This document shows, in pieces, positions 5,809-63,899 of a DNA stretch of 64,000 nucleotides (its first letter is position 1; each line of letters begins with the position of its first letter). The notes under the pieces are model-generated. The model made no database searches. It saw only the letters and a list, made by a program, of their open reading frames with translations, and was not told the origin of the DNA. The DNA is from Candidatus Kapaibacterium sp. GTDB lineage: Bacteria > Bacteroidota > Ignavibacteria > Kapaibacteriales > UBA4661. Location: positions 4,785-68,784 of the forward strand of contig JANWZB010000001.1 of NCBI GenBank assembly GCA_025055035.1, read 5' to 3'. Position numbers and translations under genes: made by a program.

Positions 5809-7866
5809 CTATTTTGGCAGTGCATACTCGACGACAAGACCCATAGCGTACATGCGGCCTTCTGGAGTTGCATCATCAAAAATGCGCTTCTGCGAGATTG
5901 TTGTGGAAGAGGATATGTCCTGAAAATTTATGAGCCTCTGTAATAAGCCATCGCGGTGAGTGTAGTATACATGTGGTCTGTCGATGTCCACATACTGCTG
6001 AGACTGCTGTATTATTAGTGCGATCTTGCGTAGTGTGTCGTTGGGTGTATTGTGCAAAAGGATAGAGCGTTCTTCGCGTATGTGCGGGGGCTCTTCGACG
6101 ACTTTCAATGTAACGAGCGGAGCTTCAAATCTATTGTTTGTAATATCATCAATCGTAAGCCTCATGCTGAGTTCATCGGCGCTTACAGGAGGATGAGTGC
6201 GGATATCCCATGTGTATGTTTGTGGAGCTGGTGCTTGCCCTTGAGCAGCGTGAATTGTCAATGCCTCGCGCTGAGTAAACTGAAAAATTTCTAAATCCCA
6301 TTGTTTTAAGCCTTGTCCAGCAACAATTTCTAGGTCGAGCTGCAGTCGCTCTGGAACAGTGAATCGGCGCTCAATATTGAGAATAACATCCTCTAAGAGC
6401 CCTTCTGAATTTGCTGATAGTTGAGCACTGCGTAACTCATCATGTCTTGTGATTGGGATATGATGAGGTGCTGAGAGAACTTTGTGGGAAATGATGATTT
6501 GCTCGCGGGGAATGCGCCAAACATTATACAGATAGCTTGCAACTGCTGTCGCACGTGCTTCAGCAAGGCGCTGCGGTTGCTGTTCGTAGTCAAGTGCTGT
6601 ACCAGTGATTGTGAGCATGCTTTTAGCAGCGTTGCGCAAGCGGTAGCCAATGATATTGATAATCTGATAATACACTGTAGCTATGAGCTTTTCAGAGCTC
6701 AAAGAACTTGCCGCAGAGCTTGTATTCAAAGCTTCTGGAGAAAACCTGCTGGCATCAGAGCTTGAGGTAAGCACTTTATAGCGCGAAGGTATAATACTAG
6801 AGTTCTCAGCAAAGAATATCATTGGTAGCAAAGCAATGCGCTGCGTTGTAGGTATTCTTTTCAGGCGAATGGCGAATGCAGCGGTCGGTCGAACATCTCT
6901 GTTCCCCGTAGCAGCAATAGTATACGAGATAGTATCGGAGGGTTGACTCTGACTATTGGCAATGGGTCGTATAGCAGTAATTCTTGCTTTTAGCTCTTTT
7001 TTGCGCGCTTCCTGTGCTTCCGCAAGTGCCTGCTGTGCAATTGCTTGTGCTTGCCGTAAACTGTCTTGGAAGCGTTGCTCAAGTTCTGCAGGGGTCAAAT
7101 CAGTTGTGCGGTAAGGAGAAAATTTAAGCGAGAAACCAAGACGGAGCGATGCGATTCTCCAATCAATATCGGGGATAACTGACCGCAGCGGAAGAGCATA
7201 GAATGCCTCGAGTGAGGGAAGTATTGTTCCTGCTTGATTGACTTGAAGCTCAAGTGCTGCTCCACCAACAAGCGCAATCTGAAGAGGCGATACTCCGGGT
7301 AGAATACCAGTGCTGCCGTTGAACGTTCGTTGGCCATTAGTGTAGGTGATATCGTCTGGTTCGATAATGCGCTCTCGATATTGATAGGCAGATTGCACAA
7401 ATGTGCCTACCTGTATGCCAAGCGATGCTGTTAAACGCCTAAGATATCGTGCTGTTACTGTTGGTTCAAACATAAAGGCAGATAACGATGTTTCAAGCTC
7501 ATGGCGGATTGTTGCCGTACCTCCTGCGATACGGACACGCTCAAGTGCTGTGAGATTCGCTCCCACGTTGTGGAAATATAATGCCCTGCCGGTAGCACTG
7601 ATAGTCAAGGCATTGTCGAGTTTTACAATAGGATATTCACCAAGAGCACCAATACTCCATCCCTGAGCAGAAGTGCCTCCATACTGTTGTTGACAGCAAG
7701 AAGGAATACCTGGTATGGTACTAAAGTTTGCGTAATGCTGGTGTATCATGTATGAGGCACTCAAACCAAAGCGTAGTGCTGTCGTGTCAGCGACTTGTGC
7801 ACAAAGAGCACAAAGAGAAAGAGATATTGCTACGTTTATTGTAGCTATAGTGAGAGCTGTGTTCAT
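5809..7866 (-). CDS. hypothetical secreted or outer-membrane protein with a possible OmpA-like segment and a coiled-coil stretch
   Basis: Signal-peptide-like N-terminus after trimming to MNTALTIATINVAISLSLCALCAQ. Alternating beta-strand-like region, a coiled coil (ELEQRFQDSLRQAQAIAQQALAEAQEARKKELKA), and a stretch RLAEARATAVASYL resembling OmpA C-terminal domains. Confidence 0.4.
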   Translation of the reverse strand: MNTALTIATINVAISLSLCALCAQVADTTALRFGLSASYMIHQHYANFSTIPGIPSCCQQQYGGTSAQGWSIGALGEYPIVKLDNALTISATGRALYFHNVGANLTALERVRIAGGTATIRHELETSLSAFMFEPTVTARYLRRLTASLGIQVGTFVQSAYQYRERIIEPDDITYTNGQRTFNGSTGILPGVSPLQIALVGGAALELQVNQAGTILPSLEAFYALPLRSVIPDIDWRIASLRLGFSLKFSPYRTTDLTPAELEQRFQDSLRQAQAIAQQALAEAQEARKKELKARITAIRPIANSQSQPSDTISYTIAATGNRDVRPTAAFAIRLKRIPTTQRIALLPMIFFAENSSIIPSRYKVLTSSSDASRFSPEALNTSSAASSLSSEKLIATVYYQIINIIGYRLRNAAKSMLTITGTALDYEQQPQRLAEARATAVASYLYNVWRIPREQIIISHKVLSAPHHIPITRHDELRSAQLSANSEGLLEDVILNIERRFTVPERLQLDLEIVAGQGLKQWDLEIFQFTQREALTIHAAQGQAPAPQTYTWDIRTHPPVSADELSMRLTIDDITNNRFEAPLVTLKVVEEPPHIREERSILLHNTPNDTLRKIALIIQQSQQYVDIDRPHVYYTHRDGLLQRLINFQDISSSTTISQKRIFDDATPEGRMYAMGLVVEYALPK

Positions 7867-7945
7867 ATTTCTGCCTTTTGGTGTTTGTGCATTTTGCAAT
7901 AACGGCATCATTGATCATCACCATCTGCACTCTTATCACAATAGC

Positions 7946-10132
7946 TTACGTATCTAGAGCCTTTCTTCCTATGAGGAAGTAGGTATTCATATATCCTTTA
8001 CTCTTTATTTCAATGCTACCACGTTCTTCAAAAGCAAATGTATCTCGGAGGGATCGATACACTGCCTCAGAGCAATGTATTCGCCTAGGTTCACCGTGAG
8101 ATTCCATACGACTTGCTGTGTTGACGGTATCACCCCACAAATCATACGTAAATCTATTTTGACCAATAACTCCTGCTGTTGCTTCGCCACAGTGAATACC
8201 AATGCGTAAGGATAAGTCCATATTAAGAAACTCAGCGCAGCGTTGGATTTCTTGCATCATTTCCAGAGCAAGGTCTGCCATAGCGACAAGATGGTCAGGA
8301 CGTGATGATGTAGAAAGCCCTCCGGCAACCATATATGCATCGCCAATAGTCTTAATTTTTTCTAGCCCGTAGTTTTGCGTGAGCGTGTCGAATGAAGAAA
8401 ACACGACATTCAGCATATCTACAAGCTCTCGTGGACTAATATGGGCAGATAGCTTAGTAAAACCAACAATATCAGCAAACATGACACCTACATTCGACAG
8501 ACCATCTGCAATACTCCCTTCCCCTTTCTTTAAGCGCTCGGCAATAGTTTCAGGTAAGATACTCTTCAGTAGATGATCGGATTTTTCACGCTCACGCTGA
8601 ATTTGAGCAATATACAGGTGTTGCTGACGGCGAATCTGATACAACTCGTGATGGAACTTCAAGCGCGCAAGGATTTCTGCTTTTTGGAATGGCTTAATGA
8701 TATAGTCGGAGCCACCAGCATCAAAGCCCTTTACAATTGCTTCGGTATCGTTTACACCACTCATGAAAATTATAGGAATATCACGTGTAGTAGCTGTATG
8801 CTTCAGCTGGTTACACACATGATATCCATCAATATCGGGCAAAACAACATCGAGAAGAACGATGTCTGGAGTGCGTGTTCTAACAGCCTGTAGGGCTTCT
8901 TGGCCACTTGTTACCAGCATAAGCTCAAACATTTCGTCGTGCAAAATATGCTTGAGCATCGAAAGATTAGTTATCGAATCATCAACTATCAGCAGAAGCG
9001 GCTTTGCCTGTGATTGCTCAAACTTTTCCTCGAAGGACTCACGTACAATCTGTGTCAGTACGGAGCGATGACTATCAGCGTGCGCTGTACTCACAGTAGC
9101 AGGAGCAGTGTTGTCGGAGTATTCATCATGGCTCTGGTCATGATTATATGTAAGAAGCTGCTGCTCAGTCTGTTCATTGCTGGTAATGCTTGCTTCCGCG
9201 CTATTGGTGATGTTTGTGTGTTCTGTCTGCTGGTGCATATCTGGCTGAAATGTGCGGATATCTGGATCTTGACTTTGAGGAAGATACTGCGCCACCCGCA
9301 ACGATTCCTGCACAATCTGGCGTATATCCTGCACATACTTTTTCATTGCGTGCTCTGCAAGGCGAGGAATATCCGTTACTTCTTGCATAAAGCTTTCGAC
9401 CGCGGCAAATCCTTGTACCATCTCGCGCACAGCAAAATGTAGTTCCGATTGACGATTCAGCACGTCAGCTTGTATTTTGCGTATTGCATCGAGATGCTCC
9501 TGTATTGCACTATATTGCTCATACAGTTCTGGCTCTTGCTCGCTCGCATCAGAAGACATCTGTAAAGTATTGGCAATATGCTCAAGAGTTGTTTCAACCT
9601 GCTTCTGTATGAGGTCAAGCTCTGTTCCAAAAATATTGGTGAAATCTTCTCGTAGTAAGTCTGGTAGCGCTAGTTGCAAGGATTCGAAGCTGTGTTGAAA
9701 CTGTTGCTCGAACTGTTGTCCTATGTGTTCCTGCACGACATAGTTAAGCTGCTGTATAAATTCATGTTCCAAGAACTCACGAATCTGCTGAAGCTGTGCT
9801 TGAGCCTGCATTTGCATCTCTCCACTCAACGAGGATTGGAGCACAACAAGCGTATCGTGTAACATTGCTGCAGATTGCTTTGTTTCACCTATCAATGCTT
9901 CGATAGTACCTTGTTCTTTGTGCGATGATTCAAGGATTGTAGTTGCTCGCTGTATATTGAGCATCATTTTCGAAAATGCGCCCTTTAATTCCCCTAGCAT
10001 ATGCGCTTGCTCCGTCAGCATCTGCGCTTGAGCACGTGATGATTGACGCGCTTGCCACACCAGCCACAGTAATACCGCGCTACATATTACAAGGATAGCA
10101 AGCGTACTAGACACTAGACTAAACTCAGACAT
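7946..10132 (-). CDS. membrane-anchored class III adenylate/guanylate cyclase with internal response-regulator receiver domain
   Basis: N-terminal TM helix and a long Q/E-rich coiled coil. Receiver domain LLLIVDDS...DIVLLDVVLPDIDG...DYIIKPF. Cyclase domain with FADIVGFT, KTIGDAYM and WGDTVNTASRMES. Start trimmed to MSEFSL. Confidence 0.8.
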   Translation of the reverse strand: MSEFSLVSSTLAILVICSAVLLWLVWQARQSSRAQAQMLTEQAHMLGELKGAFSKMMLNIQRATTILESSHKEQGTIEALIGETKQSAAMLHDTLVVLQSSLSGEMQMQAQAQLQQIREFLEHEFIQQLNYVVQEHIGQQFEQQFQHSFESLQLALPDLLREDFTNIFGTELDLIQKQVETTLEHIANTLQMSSDASEQEPELYEQYSAIQEHLDAIRKIQADVLNRQSELHFAVREMVQGFAAVESFMQEVTDIPRLAEHAMKKYVQDIRQIVQESLRVAQYLPQSQDPDIRTFQPDMHQQTEHTNITNSAEASITSNEQTEQQLLTYNHDQSHDEYSDNTAPATVSTAHADSHRSVLTQIVRESFEEKFEQSQAKPLLLIVDDSITNLSMLKHILHDEMFELMLVTSGQEALQAVRTRTPDIVLLDVVLPDIDGYHVCNQLKHTATTRDIPIIFMSGVNDTEAIVKGFDAGGSDYIIKPFQKAEILARLKFHHELYQIRRQQHLYIAQIQREREKSDHLLKSILPETIAERLKKGEGSIADGLSNVGVMFADIVGFTKLSAHISPRELVDMLNVVFSSFDTLTQNYGLEKIKTIGDAYMVAGGLSTSSRPDHLVAMADLALEMMQEIQRCAEFLNMDLSLRIGIHCGEATAGVIGQNRFTYDLWGDTVNTASRMESHGEPRRIHCSEAVYRSLRDTFAFEERGSIEIKSKGYMNTYFLIGRKALDT

Positions 10133-10336
10133 ACACCCTCGCACCGAGCAATGAGACAATACCACTGCATAGCAGAAATATACAAATTCATCTCTTCAAA
10201 ATTCTCTGAAAAGCGCCATGAGTACAGATTTTTGACGGAATGTCTACAGCAATAGCAATTTGCCAGATTATTCGATAAGGTGTATTTTTGTAGCCTACAG
10301 GTTGTGTCGTCTGCTATATGTTAAAGGGAGCAATCG

Positions 10337-13653: not shown

Positions 13654-13941
13654 ATGCCATTAACACCTTTGCATGACCGCGTCATTGTTCGCGCTGCACA
13701 GCCAGAAGAAGTTACCAAAGGCGGGATCATTCTTCCTGACACAGCAAAAGAGAAGCCACAGCAAGGCGAAGTTATTGCTGTAGGACCGGGTAAAATCGGC
13801 GACGATGGCAAAACTATCGCAATGCAAGTGAAAAAAGGCGACAAAGTTCTGTATGGCAAATATTCAGGTACTGAAGTAAACATTGATGGTGAAGATGTTC
13901 TGATTATGCGCGAAAGTGACATCTTTGCTATCATCAAGTAA
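13654..13941 (+). CDS. groS: co-chaperonin GroES
   Basis: 95 aa with typical GroES sequence (LHDRVIVRA...[24 protein letters not shown]). Confidence 0.95.
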
Positions 13942-13993
13942 AATGCTAGACTAGCTCTCATCCACTGCAGACTTTGTAGATAATCCATCTTAG

Positions 13994-15670
<1,677 letters not shown>

Positions 15671-39672: not shown

Positions 39673-40557
39673 TTAGGCTTGTTGTGTCAGAAGCCGTTCA
39701 ATCATCGTCTTTAGTCCTTCAACTTTCCTCAGAATAGGGCGCAATGTTTGAGGGTTTTGATGCTTGAGCATCGTTTGAAGCTCACTAATATATCGGTTTG
39801 CTTTTTCTATCACAGCAGTGTCTTTCTTTTTCGCTATTTGTATAGCGTTTTTTGAGGAAACATTTTTTAGTGCTGTTTTGTTCCCAAATCCCTCTTCCTG
39901 CTGCAGCTTTTGCTGTAGTTCTTTGCGATATTTTGCCAACTGCTTTTGCACTGCCGAGACGTTTTGTCCTGTGTCCTGAGCGATTTTTTGAGCAGTAAGG
40001 CGTTGCACAGAAGTGCTTTCAGAAAGTAAAACGGAAGATTCCGTTTTACTTAAACTGCTTGTATCGTGCGCTGATTTTTTCGACCATTTCAATCCTCCAC
40101 CACGCGTTTCTTGGCGAATCAAGACGTCGAAATCTGGGTAGAGTTTCTTGTACAAACTGATCCACTCTGCTGTAGAAAATTGTCGGCGGTATAGATTATC
40201 CTTGATGATAAATTCGCGTTCTGCTGCTTCTGTGAGCGTATCGAGGACATACTGCACAGGCACAGACTGCAATCCTAGCTCCAATGCAACCTGCAAGCGG
40301 TTGTGCCCAGCAAGCAACACATCATCTTTCTTTGCCAGCAATGGAACAATAATCCCACGCTCTCGTATATCGTCCCGCAGCTTACTAAAATAATCTTCGC
40401 TTTCCTCTCTGAAAAAATGCCTATTCAGAGGATTTATCTTCAGCTGCTGAGGAGCAATATACTGCACGTCCGACAGCCGCACACCTTGAAGGTCAGCTCG
40501 TTTTGCTTGCACCCACGCAAGAGGGTTATTGTGCAGCTTAGGCTTCTTGGGATTCAT
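39673..40557 (-). CDS. parB: ParB-like partition protein (ParB/Srx nuclease-fold N-domain, HTH, K/Q-rich C-terminus)
   Basis: ParB N-domain IIVPLLAKKDDVLLAGHNRLQVALELGL, with GHNRLQ in place of the canonical GERRxRA CTP-binding motif. Putative HTH LTAQKIAQDTGQNVSAVQ. Directly downstream of parA. Confidence 0.7.
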   Translation of the reverse strand: MNPKKPKLHNNPLAWVQAKRADLQGVRLSDVQYIAPQQLKINPLNRHFFREESEDYFSKLRDDIRERGIIVPLLAKKDDVLLAGHNRLQVALELGLQSVPVQYVLDTLTEAAEREFIIKDNLYRRQFSTAEWISLYKKLYPDFDVLIRQETRGGGLKWSKKSAHDTSSLSKTESSVLLSESTSVQRLTAQKIAQDTGQNVSAVQKQLAKYRKELQQKLQQEEGFGNKTALKNVSSKNAIQIAKKKDTAVIEKANRYISELQTMLKHQNPQTLRPILRKVEGLKTMIERLLTQQA

Positions 40558-40592: not shown

Positions 40593-41348
40593 CTAGAGTA
40601 TCCGTTGGACAATTGTTTGTGCAATCTCGCTATATTGTTCAGCTGCTTTGCTTGTAGGCTTATACTCAAAAATGCTTCTTCCTGCAGAAGCAGCTTCGGC
40701 GAGAGCAATAACTTCGGAAATATGCGTCGGAAATAACTCATGAGGGAACTGAGTTTCGAGTGCTTGCAGCGCTTCGCAGTGCATACCCTTCCTACGGTCG
40801 AACATTGTAGCAATCACTCCAGAAACGGCAAGCTTTGGATTTGTGCGTTTTTGCACAATACCAATGATTTCATACAGCTTTGCGAGACCTTGTAATGCAA
40901 AAAACTCCGTTTGCACAACAATACACACATCGGTCGAAGCAGTAAATGCATTAACTGTTAATAAGCCTAGGCTTGGTGGTGTATCTATAAGAATAGCATC
41001 ATACCCTGATACATGCTCGAGCGCCTCTCTCAGGAGAAATTCTCTTCCTGTGACGCTTTGCAACTCTGCTTCACTATTTGTTACATCGAGCGACGACGGC
41101 ACCAAATGCAGCATTGGGGAAAGCTGTGTCGTGGCCTCAGCTATTGATGCCGTAGCCCGAAGCACTTCGTATATCGTATTTTCTGGTCGTTCATATACAC
41201 CAAAATGCGCAGTAAGATTCGTCTGTGGATCGGTGTCAACGAGCAGGGTGCGCTTATTATAATGATGAGCAAGAGCATATCCAACATTTGCGACAGTCGT
41301 TGTCTTGCCAACTCCTCCTTTGTGATTTGCAAAGGTGATAATTTTCAT
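40593..41348 (-). CDS. parA: ParA/Soj-family partition ATPase
   Basis: Deviant Walker A KGGVGKTTT and DTDPQ. Confidence 0.88.
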   Translation of the reverse strand: MKIITFANHKGGVGKTTTVANVGYALAHHYNKRTLLVDTDPQTNLTAHFGVYERPENTIYEVLRATASIAEATTQLSPMLHLVPSSLDVTNSEAELQSVTGREFLLREALEHVSGYDAILIDTPPSLGLLTVNAFTASTDVCIVVQTEFFALQGLAKLYEIIGIVQKRTNPKLAVSGVIATMFDRRKGMHCEALQALETQFPHELFPTHISEVIALAEAASAGRSIFEYKPTSKAAEQYSEIAQTIVQRIL

Positions 41349-41482
41349 GCACAAAACACTTTATGAAACAATTTTATGTAGTGCGCAAATTACAAAAAAT
41401 CTTGCGAAGCATTGGCATATCTTAGCTTCGCCATCATAGAAAATTTTGTTTGAACTAGTTTTTCCTCCTATCTTCGCTGTGC

Positions 41483-41524: not shown

Positions 41525-42724
41525 TTGGTTACAAGTATGTTATCATGCCAGCGGCACTTATTTAGCTTACCCGACAGTGTTCACTATCTCAACTGTGCAT
41601 TTATGTCTCCTCTTTTGAAACGTGTTGAAGAGGCTGGATATCATGGAATTTCGAAGAAACGCCTACCCCATTGCATTAAACAAGAAGATTTTTTTGGACT
41701 CCCTGCTACAGCACGAGCACTCTTTGCTAAGCTTATCCACGCATCAAGTGCTGATACTGTTACACTGCTTCCGTCTGTCTCTTACGGCATGGCTATTGTT
41801 GCAAAGAATCTTCCGGTGCACAAAGGTCAGAATATTGTTGCCGTTGCGGAAGAATTTCCAAGCAACATTTACGCATGGCGTCATCATTGTGCACAAGGCA
41901 TGGAACTGCGTCTTATTACTCCGCCATCCATACAGGATTGTTATTCCAGCGCACATACACGCGCTGAGCTATGGAACACAAGAATACTCAACGCAATAGA
42001 CACTAGCACGGCTCTTGTTGTTGTGTGTCCGTTGCATTGGGCAGATGGCACGCTCTTCGACCTTGTGCGCATTGGTAGTGCAGCACGAAGCGCCGGAGCA
42101 CTGTTTGTTGTGGATGGCACTCAAGCACTTGGAGCAATGCCATTTGATGTTCAACAGGTTCAGCCCGACGCTCTCATTGCAGCGTCGTACAAGTGTATGA
42201 TGGGTGCGTATTCCATAGGCTGTGCATATTGGGGAGAGCGACTTGCACACGCAACTCCCCTTGAAGAAACATGGGTAGGTCGTCTGGGAAGTGAAGATTT
42301 TCGCAATCTTACTGCTTATGAGGAAGAGTATCAGCCAGGTATGAATAGGTTGAACATGGGAGAACAGAGTAACTTTGTTCTCATTCCTATGCTTATTGCT
42401 GCTCTTGAGCAAGTTCTTGAATGGACGCCTACGTCTGTTCAAGAGTACTGCTCAGTGCTCACTGAACCTCTTGTGGACTTTTGTACAGAGTACAAGCTAT
42501 GGATAGAACATCACAGCTGGCGGGCACATCATCTATTTGGTATTCGCTTACCTGAGCATATAGATATTGCTACTGTTCAATCATCTCTTGCCCGGCATAA
42601 CGTTTATATCTCATTGCGAGGTGATTCTTTGCGCATATCCCCCCACGTGTATAATACACCGGAAGATATTCAAGCGCTCATACAAGCATTATACGAAGCA
42701 CTGTCATCACACTCATACAAGTAA
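41525..42724 (+). CDS. class V aminotransferase-fold PLP-dependent enzyme (cysteine desulfurase / isopenicillin-N-epimerase-like)
   Basis: YLNCAFMSP N-terminal motif and a candidate PLP-lysine SYKCMMG. Confidence 0.7.
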   Translation: MVTSMLSCQRHLFSLPDSVHYLNCAFMSPLLKRVEEAGYHGISKKRLPHCIKQEDFFGLPATARALFAKLIHASSADTVTLLPSVSYGMAIVAKNLPVHKGQNIVAVAEEFPSNIYAWRHHCAQGMELRLITPPSIQDCYSSAHTRAELWNTRILNAIDTSTALVVVCPLHWADGTLFDLVRIGSAARSAGALFVVDGTQALGAMPFDVQQVQPDALIAASYKCMMGAYSIGCAYWGERLAHATPLEETWVGRLGSEDFRNLTAYEEEYQPGMNRLNMGEQSNFVLIPMLIAALEQVLEWTPTSVQEYCSVLTEPLVDFCTEYKLWIEHHSWRAHHLFGIRLPEHIDIATVQSSLARHNVYISLRGDSLRISPHVYNTPEDIQALIQALYEALSSHSYK

Positions 42725-42799
42725 AAAGGAACGTTCCGTTTTACTTGCCTTGATAGCACAAATTCGTGATTAGAACACTTCTTCTTGAACTTTTGTACT

Positions 42800-59759: not shown

Positions 59760-60749
59760 TCAGCTTAAAGGCGCTACATGTCGTGCTTGCGGCTTCATAA
59801 GAGCAGCACGTACCCATTTGCCCTTCTCATGTGCCATATTTCGCACCGCAAGGCGTTCTTTGTTGCAAGGACCGTCGCCATTAATAACTCGCATGAACTC
59901 TGCCCAGTCAGGCTCAGTATACTCCCAAGTATTTGTTTCGGGGTTCTTCCGTAAGGCTGGGTCAGGAATTGTTAGACCAAGCTCCCAGATCTTTGGCACG
60001 TACATGTTGAGAAACTGCTGGCGCATTTCATCATTGCTTGCAAGTTTAATTTTCCATTTCATCAGCTTCTCTGTGTGCACGGATATTTTGTCTGGGGGTC
60101 CGAAGAAATGCATCACAGGTGTCCACCAGCGATTCAGAGCATCTTGGAGCATTTGGCGCTGTTTTTTTGTACCTGTGGCAAGCGTTACGGCATTTTCGTA
60201 TCCATACTTCAGGTGAAATGATTCTTCTTGGCAAATTCGCTCGAGTGCTCGACAATACGGACCATAGCTGCCCTTCGAGTTTGTTACTTGGTTGATAATC
60301 GCACCAGCATCAATCAGCCATGCAATAACGGCAGAGTCTGCCCACGTAGGAGCAGGGTAGTTGAATACGTTTGAGTATTTGGATTTTCCAGAAATAAGAT
60401 CGTTCAGCATTGCTTCGCGTGATTTACCAAGCGTTTCAGCGGCATTGTACAGAAGTTGAGCATGTCCGACTTCGTCCTGAACCTTCGCGAGCAATGCAAG
60501 CTTGCGTTTGAATCCTGGAGCACGCGTAATCCACGTTCCTTCAGGTAGAGCTCCAATGATTTCTGAGTGTGCGTGTTGCTCTATCATCCGAATGAGCTGG
60601 CGTCGGTACTCACGTGGCATCCAGTCGTGGGGTTCTATCTTTTCGCCACGCTCAATCTTTGCCTCAAACTCAGCAAGCTTTTCAGGATCTTCACACATTA
60701 CTTCTGGCACTGCATTGGGCATGTCGCCTACATAAGCATTTCCGTACAT
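59760..60749 (-). CDS. paaA: ring-1,2-phenylacetyl-CoA epoxidase subunit A (PaaA-like ferritin-fold di-iron oxygenase)
   Basis: Strong similarity to PaaA throughout ([59 protein letters not shown]). No paaBCDE genes in the window. Confidence 0.75.
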
Positions 60750-61707: not shown

Positions 61708-62178
61708 TTATAGAGCGTGCAGGCGAAATTCCCTGCCGAAGCTTTTCAGTACAAATGTTGTATCGGTAATGCACTCGAAAAATTCTGCTAGAGCGAGATA
61801 TGATGCCAGCGTAAATCGTGCTTCAAAGGCGTGTCCTCCGCGCTCAAAAACCTTGACGTAAAGAATATTATTTTCACTCTGCCGAAGAGGATGCTCATTA
61901 TCAAGAGGAAGAAGAGTTCCATCATTGAGTGTCAAGGTGATGTTGGTATTCTCATCAGAATGAACAGCAATAACAGCAAAAGGAGCATCATCAACAACAA
62001 TGGGTACAGACTCAGCAGGTGTAATAAGAGCATATCCCTCATCGCACTTTTGTAGCGCGGTATAAAATAAGCGTACTAAGCCTGCACGTTGAATCGGCGT
62101 ATCGCCGTAGTACCATATTCCCTCAGTATCAATCCGCAAGACAGGATTATTGATATCTGATACCATGAGTATGTTCAA
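61708..62178 (-). CDS. DUF1285-family protein
   Basis: IWYYGDTPIQRAGLVRLFYTALQ...GYALITPAESVPIVVDDAPF resembles the conserved DUF1285 core as I recall it. Confidence 0.5.
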   Translation of the reverse strand: MNILMVSDINNPVLRIDTEGIWYYGDTPIQRAGLVRLFYTALQKCDEGYALITPAESVPIVVDDAPFAVIAVHSDENTNITLTLNDGTLLPLDNEHPLRQSENNILYVKVFERGGHAFEARFTLASYLALAEFFECITDTTFVLKSFGREFRLHAL

Positions 62179-62235: not shown

Positions 62236-63231
62236 CTAAGGTTTATTTGCTTGAATAAGCTTATCAAGCAGAATATTACGGTTCTGACACAGGAGCATGT
62301 AAATTGTATTATTGTATTCTCCTGCTTGCTCATACGTGTTGTGCTGACGAATAAAGTCTGGCAGCATATCGTAAGCTTCTTTCATAATTGCCTGCTGCTG
62401 CTCTAGCCCTAACTGTGAGAAGACAGTGTCGTAATCTTCAGGTGTGGTGGGTGTTGTACTCAAGTCTATTGGCTCCACTGCATTTCTAAACGGAAGAGAA
62501 AGTTCCGTTTTTCGGTAAATACAAAACTTTATTCCATCGATCTTGCGTTGCACACGATGATAGCGCACTGCTACAAATAAGTCGGAGAGCTCGTTAATTT
62601 CATTCACTGCTTTTTTGATAACTTTTTCGTTGAAGCGAGAGAAGACAAGGTACTCATCCTCATCAACACCCATAAGCTCGCGAAATTCGCTAATGGAGAT
62701 TTGTGGGGTCTCGCCGTAGGAGCGCTCAAAATCAAAATAGTCAAGACATAGCTCGTACAGAGCAAGGGCGTGCTTCGACTGGAACTTGTTTTGTAGCGAC
62801 AGACTAATCCGAGCATACATGCGAGGGTTGCGCAAGCGCTCGCGCAGAAAGGGACTAAAAGCATATGTTAAAATGCCTTGCTTAATTACAGCACCTGCAA
62901 GTAATGGGAAAACACCCCACTCACTTTTGTCTTTCCGCAAAATATTCCACCGTACAGCTGTAGTAGAAAGCTTTTCCAGCGCTTCCTTGAGATACGCATC
63001 ATCGTTGCTTTGGTAGTCAAGCATTTCAACGAGATCGCGAACACGAATTTGGAAGCGGTCAGTATGAGCAAGGTCATCATACGCACGAGCAAGCAGAATA
63101 TTCCACGCTCGGCGCTGAAGTAAGGAGATGGTATTTGTAATCTGTACAGCAGAACTATGCTTAATGACTTCTTTCTTACGTTTAGAAAGCCGAATTGGTG
63201 CACTAGATAAGATCGGTGTTACCGCTTCCAT
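62236..63231 (-). CDS. plasmid-type replication initiator, Rep_3 (RepA/RepB) family
   Basis: Winged-helix pattern typical of iteron-binding Rep_3 proteins (NTISLLQRRAWNILLARAYD...MYARISLSLQNKFQSKHALALYELCLDYF...ISISEFRELMGVDEDEY...NEKVIKKAVNEINELSDL). Start trimmed to MEAVTP; the ORF track extends to 63378. The iteron array lies immediately 5' of the gene. Confidence 0.75.
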   Translation of the reverse strand: MEAVTPILSSAPIRLSKRKKEVIKHSSAVQITNTISLLQRRAWNILLARAYDDLAHTDRFQIRVRDLVEMLDYQSNDDAYLKEALEKLSTTAVRWNILRKDKSEWGVFPLLAGAVIKQGILTYAFSPFLRERLRNPRMYARISLSLQNKFQSKHALALYELCLDYFDFERSYGETPQISISEFRELMGVDEDEYLVFSRFNEKVIKKAVNEINELSDLFVAVRYHRVQRKIDGIKFCIYRKTELSLPFRNAVEPIDLSTTPTTPEDYDTVFSQLGLEQQQAIMKEAYDMLPDFIRQHNTYEQAGEYNNTIYMLLCQNRNILLDKLIQANKP

Positions 63232-63350
63232 AATACCATTAGCTTCTGAAAGATTACAACACACCACACAACTTGATCTACTGATAGCGTTGAAATCTAC
63301 ACAATCCCTTTGCGAGAGCAAAGCAAAATGATACAACACTTTCATAAAGT

Positions 63351-63535
63351 TTCCTGTAAACGGGGAGCTTACCAGCATGCTGGATGATGTCTGATGTTAT
63401 TTCGGAGACTGTTCACGCATCCTGTAAATGGGGATGCTCATCCAGAAAATATCCTGTAAATGGGGAGGTTTCAAACACTTCTTCTCGGCTATCCTGTAAA
63501 TGGGGAGGTTTCTATCCTGTAAATGGGGAGAGTTG
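63351..63535. repeat. iteron cluster A: one degenerate plus four spaced copies of the 22-bp iteron ATCCTGTAAATGGGGAG(A/G)(G/T)TTC
   Basis: Copies at 63351-63370 (degenerate, TTCCTGTAAACGGGGAGCTT), 63419-63440, 63451-63472, 63491-63512 and 63514-63535. Confidence 0.85.
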
Positions 63536-63541
63536 CAAAAG

Positions 63542-63566
63542 TTTTCCACAAATAGAGTGTGGATTA
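63542..63566. promoter_or_regulatory. two inverted DnaA-box-like sequences (TTTTCCACA and TGTGGATTA) followed by an AT-rich stretch
   Basis: Each matches the TTATNCACA consensus at 8 of 9 positions. They sit between the two iteron clusters, as in many iteron-plasmid origins. Confidence 0.45.
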
Positions 63567-63618
63567 TATCATACTGAGACGCTATGTGGGAGTATATATA
63601 CAAAATTTTCGCACAGTA

Positions 63619-63760
63619 CTCCTATAAATGGGGAGGTTTCTATCCTGTAAATGGGGAGAGTTCATCCTGTAAATGGGGAGAGTTCATCCTGTAAATGGGG
63701 AGAGTTCATCCTGTAAATGGGGAGAGTTCATCCTGTAAATGGGGAGAGTTCATCCTGTAA
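63619..63760. repeat. iteron cluster B: one variant copy plus five perfect head-to-tail 22-bp iterons (ATCCTGTAAATGGGGAGAGTTC) and a truncated sixth
   Basis: Copies at 63619-63640, 63642-63663, 63664-63685, 63686-63707, 63708-63729, 63730-63751, and a partial one at 63752-63760. Exact 22-bp periodicity (two helical turns). Confidence 0.9.
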
Positions 63761-63791
63761 TCTCAATATTTTCAATAACTTACAGGAATAT

Positions 63792-63827
63792 AAAACTCTT
63801 AAAACTTCTAAAACTTTTAAAACTCTT
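63792..63827. repeat. four tandem AT-rich 9-mers (AAAACTYYT), candidate DNA-unwinding element
   Basis: aaaactctt, aaaacttct, aaaactttt, aaaactctt, directly flanking the iteron array. Confidence 0.55.
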
Positions 63828-63830
63828 AAA

Positions 63831-63862
63831 ATAGAGCTAGTAATAAATAGAGCTAGTAATAA
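63831..63862. repeat. 2 x 16-bp direct repeat ATAGAGCTAGTAATAA
   Basis: Exact tandem duplication seen in the sequence. Confidence 0.6.
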
Positions 63863-63869
63863 ATTAAGA

Positions 63870-63899
63870 GAGCACAGTAATCTTTTAACTACTGTGCTC
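63870..63899. promoter_or_regulatory. perfect 10-bp inverted repeat GAGCACAGTA-(10 nt)-TACTGTGCTC, hairpin or dimeric-protein binding site at the origin edge
   Basis: Exact dyad symmetry. No U-tract follows, so a classic intrinsic terminator is unlikely. Confidence 0.5.

Follow-up and report, generated by a model that had tools for sequence, protein, structure and literature searches.

A stretch of 64,000 nt of DNA from Candidatus Kapaibacterium sp., referred to here as the window, carries in its last 1.8 kb a module made up of rep, a gene for a Rep_3-family initiator, and an upstream region (oriV) that contains repeated 22 bp iterons. This module very probably constitutes a functional Rep_3/iteron origin of replication that is assisted by DnaA. 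A preliminary description, made from the sequence alone, had proposed a complete theta-type origin of this kind, and the Pfam matches and predicted fold of Rep, the iteron statistics, an unstable AT-rich block and a layout that is conserved in relatives all agree with that proposal. The sequence features that define the Rep_3/iteron class of theta replicons place the locus in that class. The rep-oriV module and a linked ParA-ParB-parS system may together form the backbone of a large, vertically inherited replicon that bears housekeeping genes and is likely a chromid or second chromosome, a reading to which we attach an even chance. We advance only tentatively the broader proposal that, in the Kapabacteria/Ignavibacteria clade, a plasmid-type Rep_3/iteron origin fires a chromosome-scale housekeeping replicon, which would be at least 1.58 Mb in one relative.

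The window was 100% identical to NCBI contig JAVQWN010000003.1 (GCA_033578975.1). The loci used for comparison (numbered with the prefix L) were those of Rep orthologues on metagenomic contigs and metagenome-assembled genomes labelled Ignavibacteria, Kapabacteria or Bacteroidota. For the comparison of origin layout, orthologous loci with a Rep 61–81% identical to that of the window were used.

The Rep initiator

The rep gene (62236–63231, minus strand) is predicted from Pfam matches, fold and orthologues to encode an initiator of 331 aa with two winged-helix domains (WH1 and WH2) and a C-terminal extension. In the open reading frame (ORF) at 62236–63378 on the minus strand, the Rep3_N/WH1 domain (PF01051) was matched at residues 71–211 with an E value of 3.4e-20 and 73.3 bits (cut-off 22.4), and the Rep3_C/WH2 domain (PF21205) with an E value of 4.9e-16 and 59.1 bits (cut-off 21.1). 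The most likely start is the ATG at 63231, which gives the 331 aa form and is favoured because the orthologues share the N-terminal sequence MEAVTP, found in six of them. The other upstream starts are a GTG at 63267, corresponding to the 343 aa form in the NCBI annotation, and the ATG at 63378.

Searches of the PDB with the single Rep sequence and with a 23-sequence profile produced no sequence match. An AlphaFold model built from the orthologue alignment had a pLDDT (predicted local distance difference test) of 62. When this model was used in a Foldseek search, the top matches were all to RepE of mini-F (E value ~1e-5, probability 1.0, ~220 aligned columns), followed by a weak match to RctB. 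The identity between Rep and RepE was 15–18% and the template modelling (TM) score ~0.42, and the model supports the WH1-WH2 fold class and nothing finer. Together with the Pfam matches, the RepE-like predicted fold bears out the Rep_3 initiator gene on the minus strand that had been proposed in the preliminary description.

Residues ~265–331 of Rep (window positions ~62236–62440) form a clade-specific helical C-terminal extension of ~65 aa, which is conserved within the clade, includes the motif EYD..F..L..QQ...A...LPDF and was modelled with a pLDDT of ~80. The Rep proteins of Pseudomonas plasmids align to Rep only up to residue 246, short of this extension, and the RepE chains (~215 residues) cover just ~220 columns of the 331-residue model.

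Iterons and other elements of the origin

The iteron core CCTGTAAAYGGGGA was found 11 times when up to two mismatches were allowed, always on the same strand and always inside 63353–63745. In shuffled versions of the window 0.31 copies were expected, and none of 100 shuffles reached 11. Six of the 11 cores belong to an array of tandem 22 bp iterons (63620–63760, plus strand; 6.4 copies, Tandem Repeats Finder score 252, 96% matches), in which the five copies at 63642–63760 are perfect. These counts are in line with the earlier claim of at least 10 copies of a 22 bp iteron, five of them perfectly tandem. A further four iterons, with cores at 63421, 63453, 63493 and 63516 (63421–63529, plus strand), are spaced at intervals of 32, 40 and 23. 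By analogy with characterized iteron plasmids, the tandem array probably represents the origin-core iterons, with Rep monomers on one face of the helix, and the spaced iterons probably represent a control set involved in handcuffing and promoter occlusion. A sigma-70-like match on the minus strand (63474–63446) overlaps the spaced iterons, such matches being at chance level.

The last iteron, CCTGTAAACGGGGA (63353–63366, plus strand), is the one closest to rep, ~120 nt upstream of the rep start, and is a candidate autoregulatory site. An iteron in this position, at 63351–63370, had been described previously as a degenerate copy that could act as an autoregulatory operator. The iteron is indeed present 5′ of rep. 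It is not degenerate, as the core is perfect, with C instead of T at the Y position, a variant that is common among the relatives. The operator role modelled for it was not confirmed: the iteron is a single direct copy, unlike the inverted half-iteron operators of the pPS10 and F plasmids.

How many tandem copies there are is not certain, because two short-read assemblies of this organism are interrupted within the array: contig JAVQWN010000003.1 starts at 63740 and the Logan assembly of SRR15826902 stops at 63534. These breaks would also be consistent with an array that is an assembly artefact, arising from the collapse or expansion of a tandem repeat. Against this, 11 independent assemblies of relatives contain 11–18 iterons per locus in the same layout with diverged flanks, and the spaced iterons are embedded in unique sequence, making an artefact scarcely credible. 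Judged from these sequences, the array itself is real and only the copy number of the perfect 22-mers is uncertain. As tandem iterons break short-read assemblies at the origin, they will bias binning and completeness estimates for such genomes.

Between the tandem and the spaced iterons is an inverted pair of DnaA-box-like 9-mers, TTTTCCACA at 63542–63550 and TGTGGATTA at 63558–63566, detected by a sequence scan. Each differs from TTATCCACA at one position, and the number of such boxes in the window is not, on its own, above chance. On the outer side of the tandem array is a block of 106 bp that is 79% A+T (63761–63866) and is, from its composition, stability and repeats, a candidate DNA-unwinding element. 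It includes four 9-mers with the sequence TAAAACTYT (63791–63831) and a 2×16 bp repeat (63829–63860), and the 10 least stable 60-mers of the whole window, as determined by nearest-neighbour energy, all begin at 63774–63809. The DnaA-box-like pair and the AT-rich repeats are thus located where the preliminary description had placed them, and the block containing the repeats is the least stable DNA in the window. The region is not built like a chromosomal oriC: Rep iterons dominate it, DnaA-like boxes number only two, and neither dnaA nor dnaN is among the ORFs of the window.

By analogy with RK2, pPS10, F and P1, we infer the following steps of binding, melting, firing and control. Rep monomers would bind the phased 22 bp iterons at 63620–63760 and host DnaA the adjacent inverted boxes at 63542–63566. 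Rep and DnaA together would then open the block of AT-rich 9-mers at 63761–63866 and recruit the host helicase. The spaced and rep-proximal iterons (63353–63529), which separate the origin core from rep and lie over the likely promoter, would serve in autorepression and, via handcuffing, in the control of copy number.

Conservation of the origin module

Orthologues of Rep fell into 23 clusters with 58–81% identity. The order of elements seen in the window, namely distal 9-mers, tandem iterons, DnaA box or boxes, spaced iterons and rep, recurs in 11 orthologous loci, where it occupies 0.9–1.3 kb upstream of rep. Sets of tandem 22 bp iterons were found at the rep-distal end in L002, L003, L004, L010, L012, L017 and L103. 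The spaced iterons of the relatives are of the same class, with spacings of ~33 and 40 bp, and all relatives have one or two iterons near the rep start, at a distance similar to that in the window. Nearly all relatives have a TGTGGAAAA/TTTTCCACA box, usually TGTGGAAAA, between their tandem and spaced iterons. Inverted pairs of DnaA boxes that are 15–16 bp apart are present in L010, where the pair is perfect (TTATCCACA/TGTGGATAA), and in L017 and L103. Ten of 12 orthologous origins have the AGAGTTTTA 9-mers in the corresponding distal place, and only L010 and L011, the two most distant relatives, which are from one organism, lack them.

Pairs of Rep orthologues had a nonsynonymous divergence (dN) of 0.10–0.32, while synonymous divergence (dS) was saturated. 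In the four loci that were compared, Rep was 74–81% identical, versus 45–73% for five of its six syntenic neighbours (DUF1285, the HmuY-like protein, the OmpA/FecR protein and both histidine kinases). PaaA (90%) was the only compared neighbour that was clearly more conserved than Rep. In the close relatives, synteny extends for at least 10 kb on the rep side, and paaB-paaC-paaD are found on the other side. The saturated dS, the low dN and the finding that Rep is more conserved than most of its neighbours point to an old rep-origin module that has been inherited vertically under purifying selection. The module is, on the same comparison, very probably functional.

An inactive relic would be one alternative to a functional origin, and another would be a domesticated system without a replication function, in which Rep is a transcription factor and the repeats are its operator array. 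Rep_3 proteins can act as autorepressors, which is compatible with the latter. However, features that only an origin would need (phased iterons, DnaA boxes and unstable AT-rich repeats) have been retained across lineages and Rep is under strong purifying selection, and we consider either possibility very unlikely. A decaying remnant of an integrated plasmid was rejected, as the protein is conserved despite saturated dS and the iterons have been retained.

A linked ParABS system

The window also contains a partition system. The parA gene (40593–41354, minus strand) encodes a Walker-type partition ATPase (Pfam AAA_31, E value 1e-51) that is 42–47% identical to plasmid ParAs, and orthologues that are 74–76% identical to it adjoin ParB on Rep-bearing contigs. 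The product of the parB gene (39673–40557, minus strand) appears to be a divergent member of the ParB/Spo0J family, and an identical protein is named ParB/RepB/Spo0J family by NCBI. It scored 21 bits against ParB_N, which is below the Pfam cut-off, and matched Spo0J (PDB 1vz0) with an E value of 1.5e-7 and plasmid ParBs with 27–37% identity.

No match to the canonical parS was found in a search of the window. A perfect 11+11 bp palindrome, GTAAAACGGAA-GA-TTCCGTTTTAC, was found inside parB (40026–40049), with none expected by chance, and a second parS-like palindrome with one mismatch was found 2.7 kb away (42721–42744) at the 3′ end of an aminotransferase gene beside parA. The form GTAAAACGGAA-NN-TTCCGTTTTAC is present at the same position of parB in L094, L100, L101 and L103, where ParB is 54–64% identical, making this palindrome a candidate for a non-canonical centromere (parS). 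By sequence, the system has the components of type I ParABS systems, a Walker ParA, a ParB N-terminal domain and a palindrome, with ParB weak against Pfam. ParB loaded at the palindromes at 40026 and 42721 would, with ParA, segregate the copies of the replicon.

Rep was always found on the same contig as ParAB of this type, at a distance of 3–22 kb. The order in L101 is ParB-ParA-aminotransferase-orf259-ori-Rep, ParA being 3.3 kb from the origin. In L103 it is ParA-ParB-PBP-PBP-adh-adh-ori-Rep-DUF1285-cbb3 oxidase operon, with 6 kb between Rep and ParAB. Rep and ParB are 21 kb apart on a contig of 227,715 bp and 22 kb apart in the window. The genes flanking the ori-rep module vary with the deeper lineage, being paaB and paaA here, adh and DUF1285 in L103, and ADH genes and TonB-SusD in L010. 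The persistence of ori-rep and parABS while the flanks change is, as far as can be judged from these sequences, the behaviour of an essential maintenance backbone.

Genes for DUF2141 and a 4HBT thioesterase are directly and divergently upstream of parA in L094, L100 and L103, the contig with L103 ending just past the 4HBT gene, and a gene for HhH-GPD joins them in L094 and L100. In the window, the DUF2141 and HhH-GPD genes (140–1231) are 40 kb off, on the other side of parAB, with their relative orientation unchanged. Comparison of the gene orders indicates a translocation within the replicon.

Gene content and size of the replicon

The housekeeping-type genes of the window include groES-groEL, proB-proA, dut, ctaA and sbcCD, as well as a gene for a Dps-like ferritin. 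The groES-groEL operon (13690–15670) is on the same contig as rep, and GroEL scored 914 bits against its NCBIfam model. Also encoded are paa genes, many sensors, TonB/SusD pairs and transporters, and in L103 a cbb3 oxidase (cco) operon adjoins rep. The GC content is even across the window, at 42–49%. An Rfam scan of the 64 kb window detected no tRNA, rRNA or other family, and no tRNA genes were found in the 15 relative loci that were scanned. In the ~69 kb read from the organism, ORF and Rfam scans revealed no dnaA, rRNA or tRNA gene.

Among the relatives, Rep is located in the interior of contigs of 140,600, 227,715 and 239,872 bp, of which the second is Ga0484956_0000235 and the third JAAFIV010000002.1. 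A small mobilisable or conjugative plasmid was rejected, as no conjugation or transfer genes were seen in the 64 kb window and Rep is found mid-contig at 140–240 kb. The preliminary description had left several options, a plasmid or chromid, an integrated plasmid replicon, or an active secondary origin, and of these an ordinary small plasmid and a decaying remnant did not stand up. The contig of 11,993 bp that carries Rep and ParAB in L101 had no terminal overlap when examined for circularity.

The Rep protein P0373 (cluster of P0020, 67% identity) and the ParB protein P0158 were each found on 12 JGI contigs, from 3300045136 and its sister samples, the longest of which is 1,579,175 bp. The replicon of this relative would be either a main chromosome or a very large second chromosome.

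GC skew and replication direction

The GC skew was determined in bulk and at third codon positions, with a term for gene strand, in the window and in ±10 kb loci of relatives (L002, L003, L004, L006, L010, L012, L013, L101 and L103). In the window organism the skew covers the rep-side arm of the origin, where it is strong and of the replication type. Skews of the relatives are weak and do not clearly change sign at the Rep locus. The third-position skew of the window had a strand term of 0.127, independent of gene orientation. Between 7.9 and 61.6 kb, almost every gene has a negative skew, the sign expected for forks leaving the iterons. The skew switches at ~7.9 kb, between the ORFs at 5809–7911 and 7946–10165, and the ten consecutive genes to the left of the switch are positive. 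The positive segment extends to −4.8 kb, as read from the NCBI contig (L096). This flip is of the terminus type and is 55.7 kb from the origin. Based on few genes, we read it as a true change in replication direction and not a recent inversion. An inversion is disfavoured because the DUF2141 and HhH-GPD genes keep the orientation to parA that is seen in the relatives but carry the opposite skew.

The window organism could have a megaplasmid of ~100–120 kb, a size variant of the chromid reading, that replicates bidirectionally from the iterons to a terminus at ~7.9 kb. Such a replicon would account for the clean switch in third-position skew, and the assemblies of this organism yield contigs of just 68.5 and 92 kb, the longer of which is 92,069 bp and encodes the same Rep, MCS6807226.1. 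However, the orthologous replicons are at least 140–240 kb and in one case at least 1.58 Mb, and no dif-like site was found near the skew switch using the proteobacterial consensus. A megaplasmid of this size is therefore unlikely.

A separate replicon or part of the main chromosome

The replication and partition functions predicted from the sequence, a Rep_3 protein with iterons, ParA, a divergent ParB and a palindrome of their own, are those expected of a chromid. A chromid is favoured because long purifying selection on a complete plasmid origin, and its lasting linkage to a private ParABS, would be expected of a secondary replicon, and because we know of no example of such features being conserved inside a main chromosome. 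On this reading, the replicon would be a molecule separate from the main chromosome.

Several findings weigh against this reading. The gene content (groESL, proBA, dut, ctaA, sbcCD and cco) is chromosome-like. The contig of 1,579,175 bp is more than half the size of a typical Kapabacteria/Ignavibacteria genome of 2.8–4.2 Mb (PMC7648391), and a main chromosome accounts for it no less well than a giant second chromosome would. A skew flip 56 kb from the origin suits a replicon of ~110 kb or a chromosomal terminus, and not a symmetric replicon on the Mb scale. Beyond the origin, the adjoining 10 kb in six relatives lack the opposite skew sign that a bidirectional origin should produce, their skew having the sign of the rep side or not differing from it, though skews near the locus are weak on both sides in these organisms and the comparison has little power. 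As regards the origin itself, only direct iterons, and no inverted half-iteron operator of the pPS10/F type, were found upstream of rep.

As the main alternative, the module could reside in the main chromosome, as an integrated ancestral Rep_3/ParABS plasmid or a fused chromid. The rep-oriV module would then have been kept as a regulated secondary or back-up origin, or for some other role, and the region would mostly be replicated passively from oriC. The 1.58 Mb contig that contains Rep and ParB, which comes from a near relative with a PaaA 87% identical to that of the window, supports this possibility, as does the housekeeping-like gene content. Single-contig genomes have been reported for a member of the Kapabacteriaceae (2.84 Mb) and for one of the Ignavibacteriales (4.21 Mb, circular) (PMC7648391). 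In L003, L012 and L010 the skew has one sign to either side of the origin which, with the terminus-like flip 56 kb away in the window, fits forks passing through. The position of the ori-rep block between paaA and paaB also resembles an insertion into an operon.

However, an origin that was not needed would be expected to decay and an active one would perturb the control of initiation. Linkage to a non-canonical ParABS that has lasted through rearrangements would be expected of a backbone and not of cargo. The absence of dnaA, rRNA and tRNA genes from the ~69 kb read, and of tRNA genes from the 15 relative loci, also argues against a main chromosome. We are aware of no main chromosome in which a complete iteron origin and its initiator have stayed under strong purifying selection across species for which dS is saturated. 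We regard a location in the main chromosome as a possibility to be taken seriously, if one that falls short of an even chance. If the module is in the main chromosome, selection would have maintained a plasmid origin within a chromosome over a long time, which would be unusual.

The constant linkage of the origin to its own ParABS and to housekeeping genes, seen on contigs as long as 1.58 Mb, makes a multipartite genome in this lineage testable. If the proposal for the whole clade is correct, the chromosome-scale Rep_3 replicon would be an undescribed multipartite genome in the Kapabacteria/Ignavibacteria. At the extreme, initiation of the main chromosome would have been captured by a plasmid initiator acting with DnaA.

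Comparison with known replicons

The order of elements in the origin matches those of the oriV-TrfA region of RK2/RP4 and the oriV-RepA region of pPS10, which likewise have one or more DnaA boxes, phased direct iterons, AT-rich repeats and additional iterons towards the initiator gene, and which also use an initiator made up of two winged-helix domains. Unlike these systems, the Rep described here has no detectable sequence similarity to solved initiators, its iteron core CCTGTAAAYGGGGA is unrelated, no inverted half-iteron operator was found and Rep is extended at its C terminus by the conserved helical segment of ~65 aa. Further differences are the host, which belongs to the Kapabacteria/Ignavibacteria, and the size of the replicon, which ranges from hundreds of kb to Mb.

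RepE of mini-F (PDB 1rep, 2z9o and 8ac8) is the best structural match to the Rep model, with only 15–18% identity, and in F, too, Rep is accompanied by a Par system (Sop) and by DnaA boxes. Among deposited plasmids, the closest initiator is that of the pND6-2-type plasmids of Pseudomonas (rep_cluster_1964, 113–190 kb), which is 44.5% identical over residues 22–246 and whose gene adjoins parB/parA. The Rep of pND6-2 is 439 aa and has only the WH1-WH2 core in common with the one described here. These plasmids carry Dot/Icm-type transfer genes, whereas none were seen in the window.

The second chromosome (Chr2) of Vibrio with RctB, the c2 and c3 replicons of Burkholderia and the second chromosomes of Prevotella likewise have a plasmid-type initiator, iterons, one or more DnaA boxes and their own ParABS. 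As with these chromids, the locus has a distinct centromere candidate, housekeeping-type cargo and apparent clade-wide vertical inheritance. In contrast to Vibrio Chr2, the initiator is an ordinary Rep_3 protein and not RctB.

The mechanism is a textbook one and the host lineage is new. No description of plasmids, chromids or multipartite genomes in the Ignavibacteria or Kapabacteria was found in the searchable literature, and neither plasmid vectors nor described secondary replicons are known to us from these groups. The 1.7 kb rep-oriV fragment is hence a candidate for the development of genetic tools in them.

Flanking genes and minor elements

A DUF1285 gene (61708–62178, minus strand; Pfam DUF1285_N) is located 57 nt downstream of rep. 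It also adjoins rep in L012, L013, L006, L003, L004 and L103, including loci where the other neighbours differ (L004 and L103), and is separated from rep in the organism of L010/L100. DUF1285 is possibly co-transcribed with rep and may have an accessory role in the replicon.

The phenylacetyl-CoA epoxidase (paa) operon is split by the origin. The paaA gene (59760–60749) is on the rep side, and paaB, paaC and paaD are found beyond the origin in L006, L012 and L003. Between paaA and paaB are an HmuY-like gene, DUF1285, rep, ori and a conserved ORF of 254–262 aa that has no Pfam match. In L094, parAB and other genes are found between paaA and paaB. In L003, L006, L012 and L103, the GC content at third codon positions is 0.25–0.40 on the far side of the origin, compared with 0.43–0.59 on the rep side, a clear difference that may reflect separate histories of the flanks or unequal expression.

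Inspection of the sequence showed a perfect 12 bp palindrome, CCAGCATGCTGG (63372–63383), located between the rep-proximal iteron and the spaced set. It is unrelated to the iteron and is a possible binding site for a dimeric or other regulator. At the outer edge of the origin is the perfect 10 bp dyad that had also been noted previously, GAGCACAGTA/TACTGTGCTC (63870–63879/63890–63899), which has a loop of 10 nt. It gave a terminator-like match on the minus strand with a poor T-tract, and a terminator-like hairpin, an insulator or an operator of the next gene are candidates for its role. Both of the short-read assemblies that break inside the iteron array also end 4.8 kb to the left of the window, inside an FtsX gene, which suggests another repeat or a strain-variable junction at this position.

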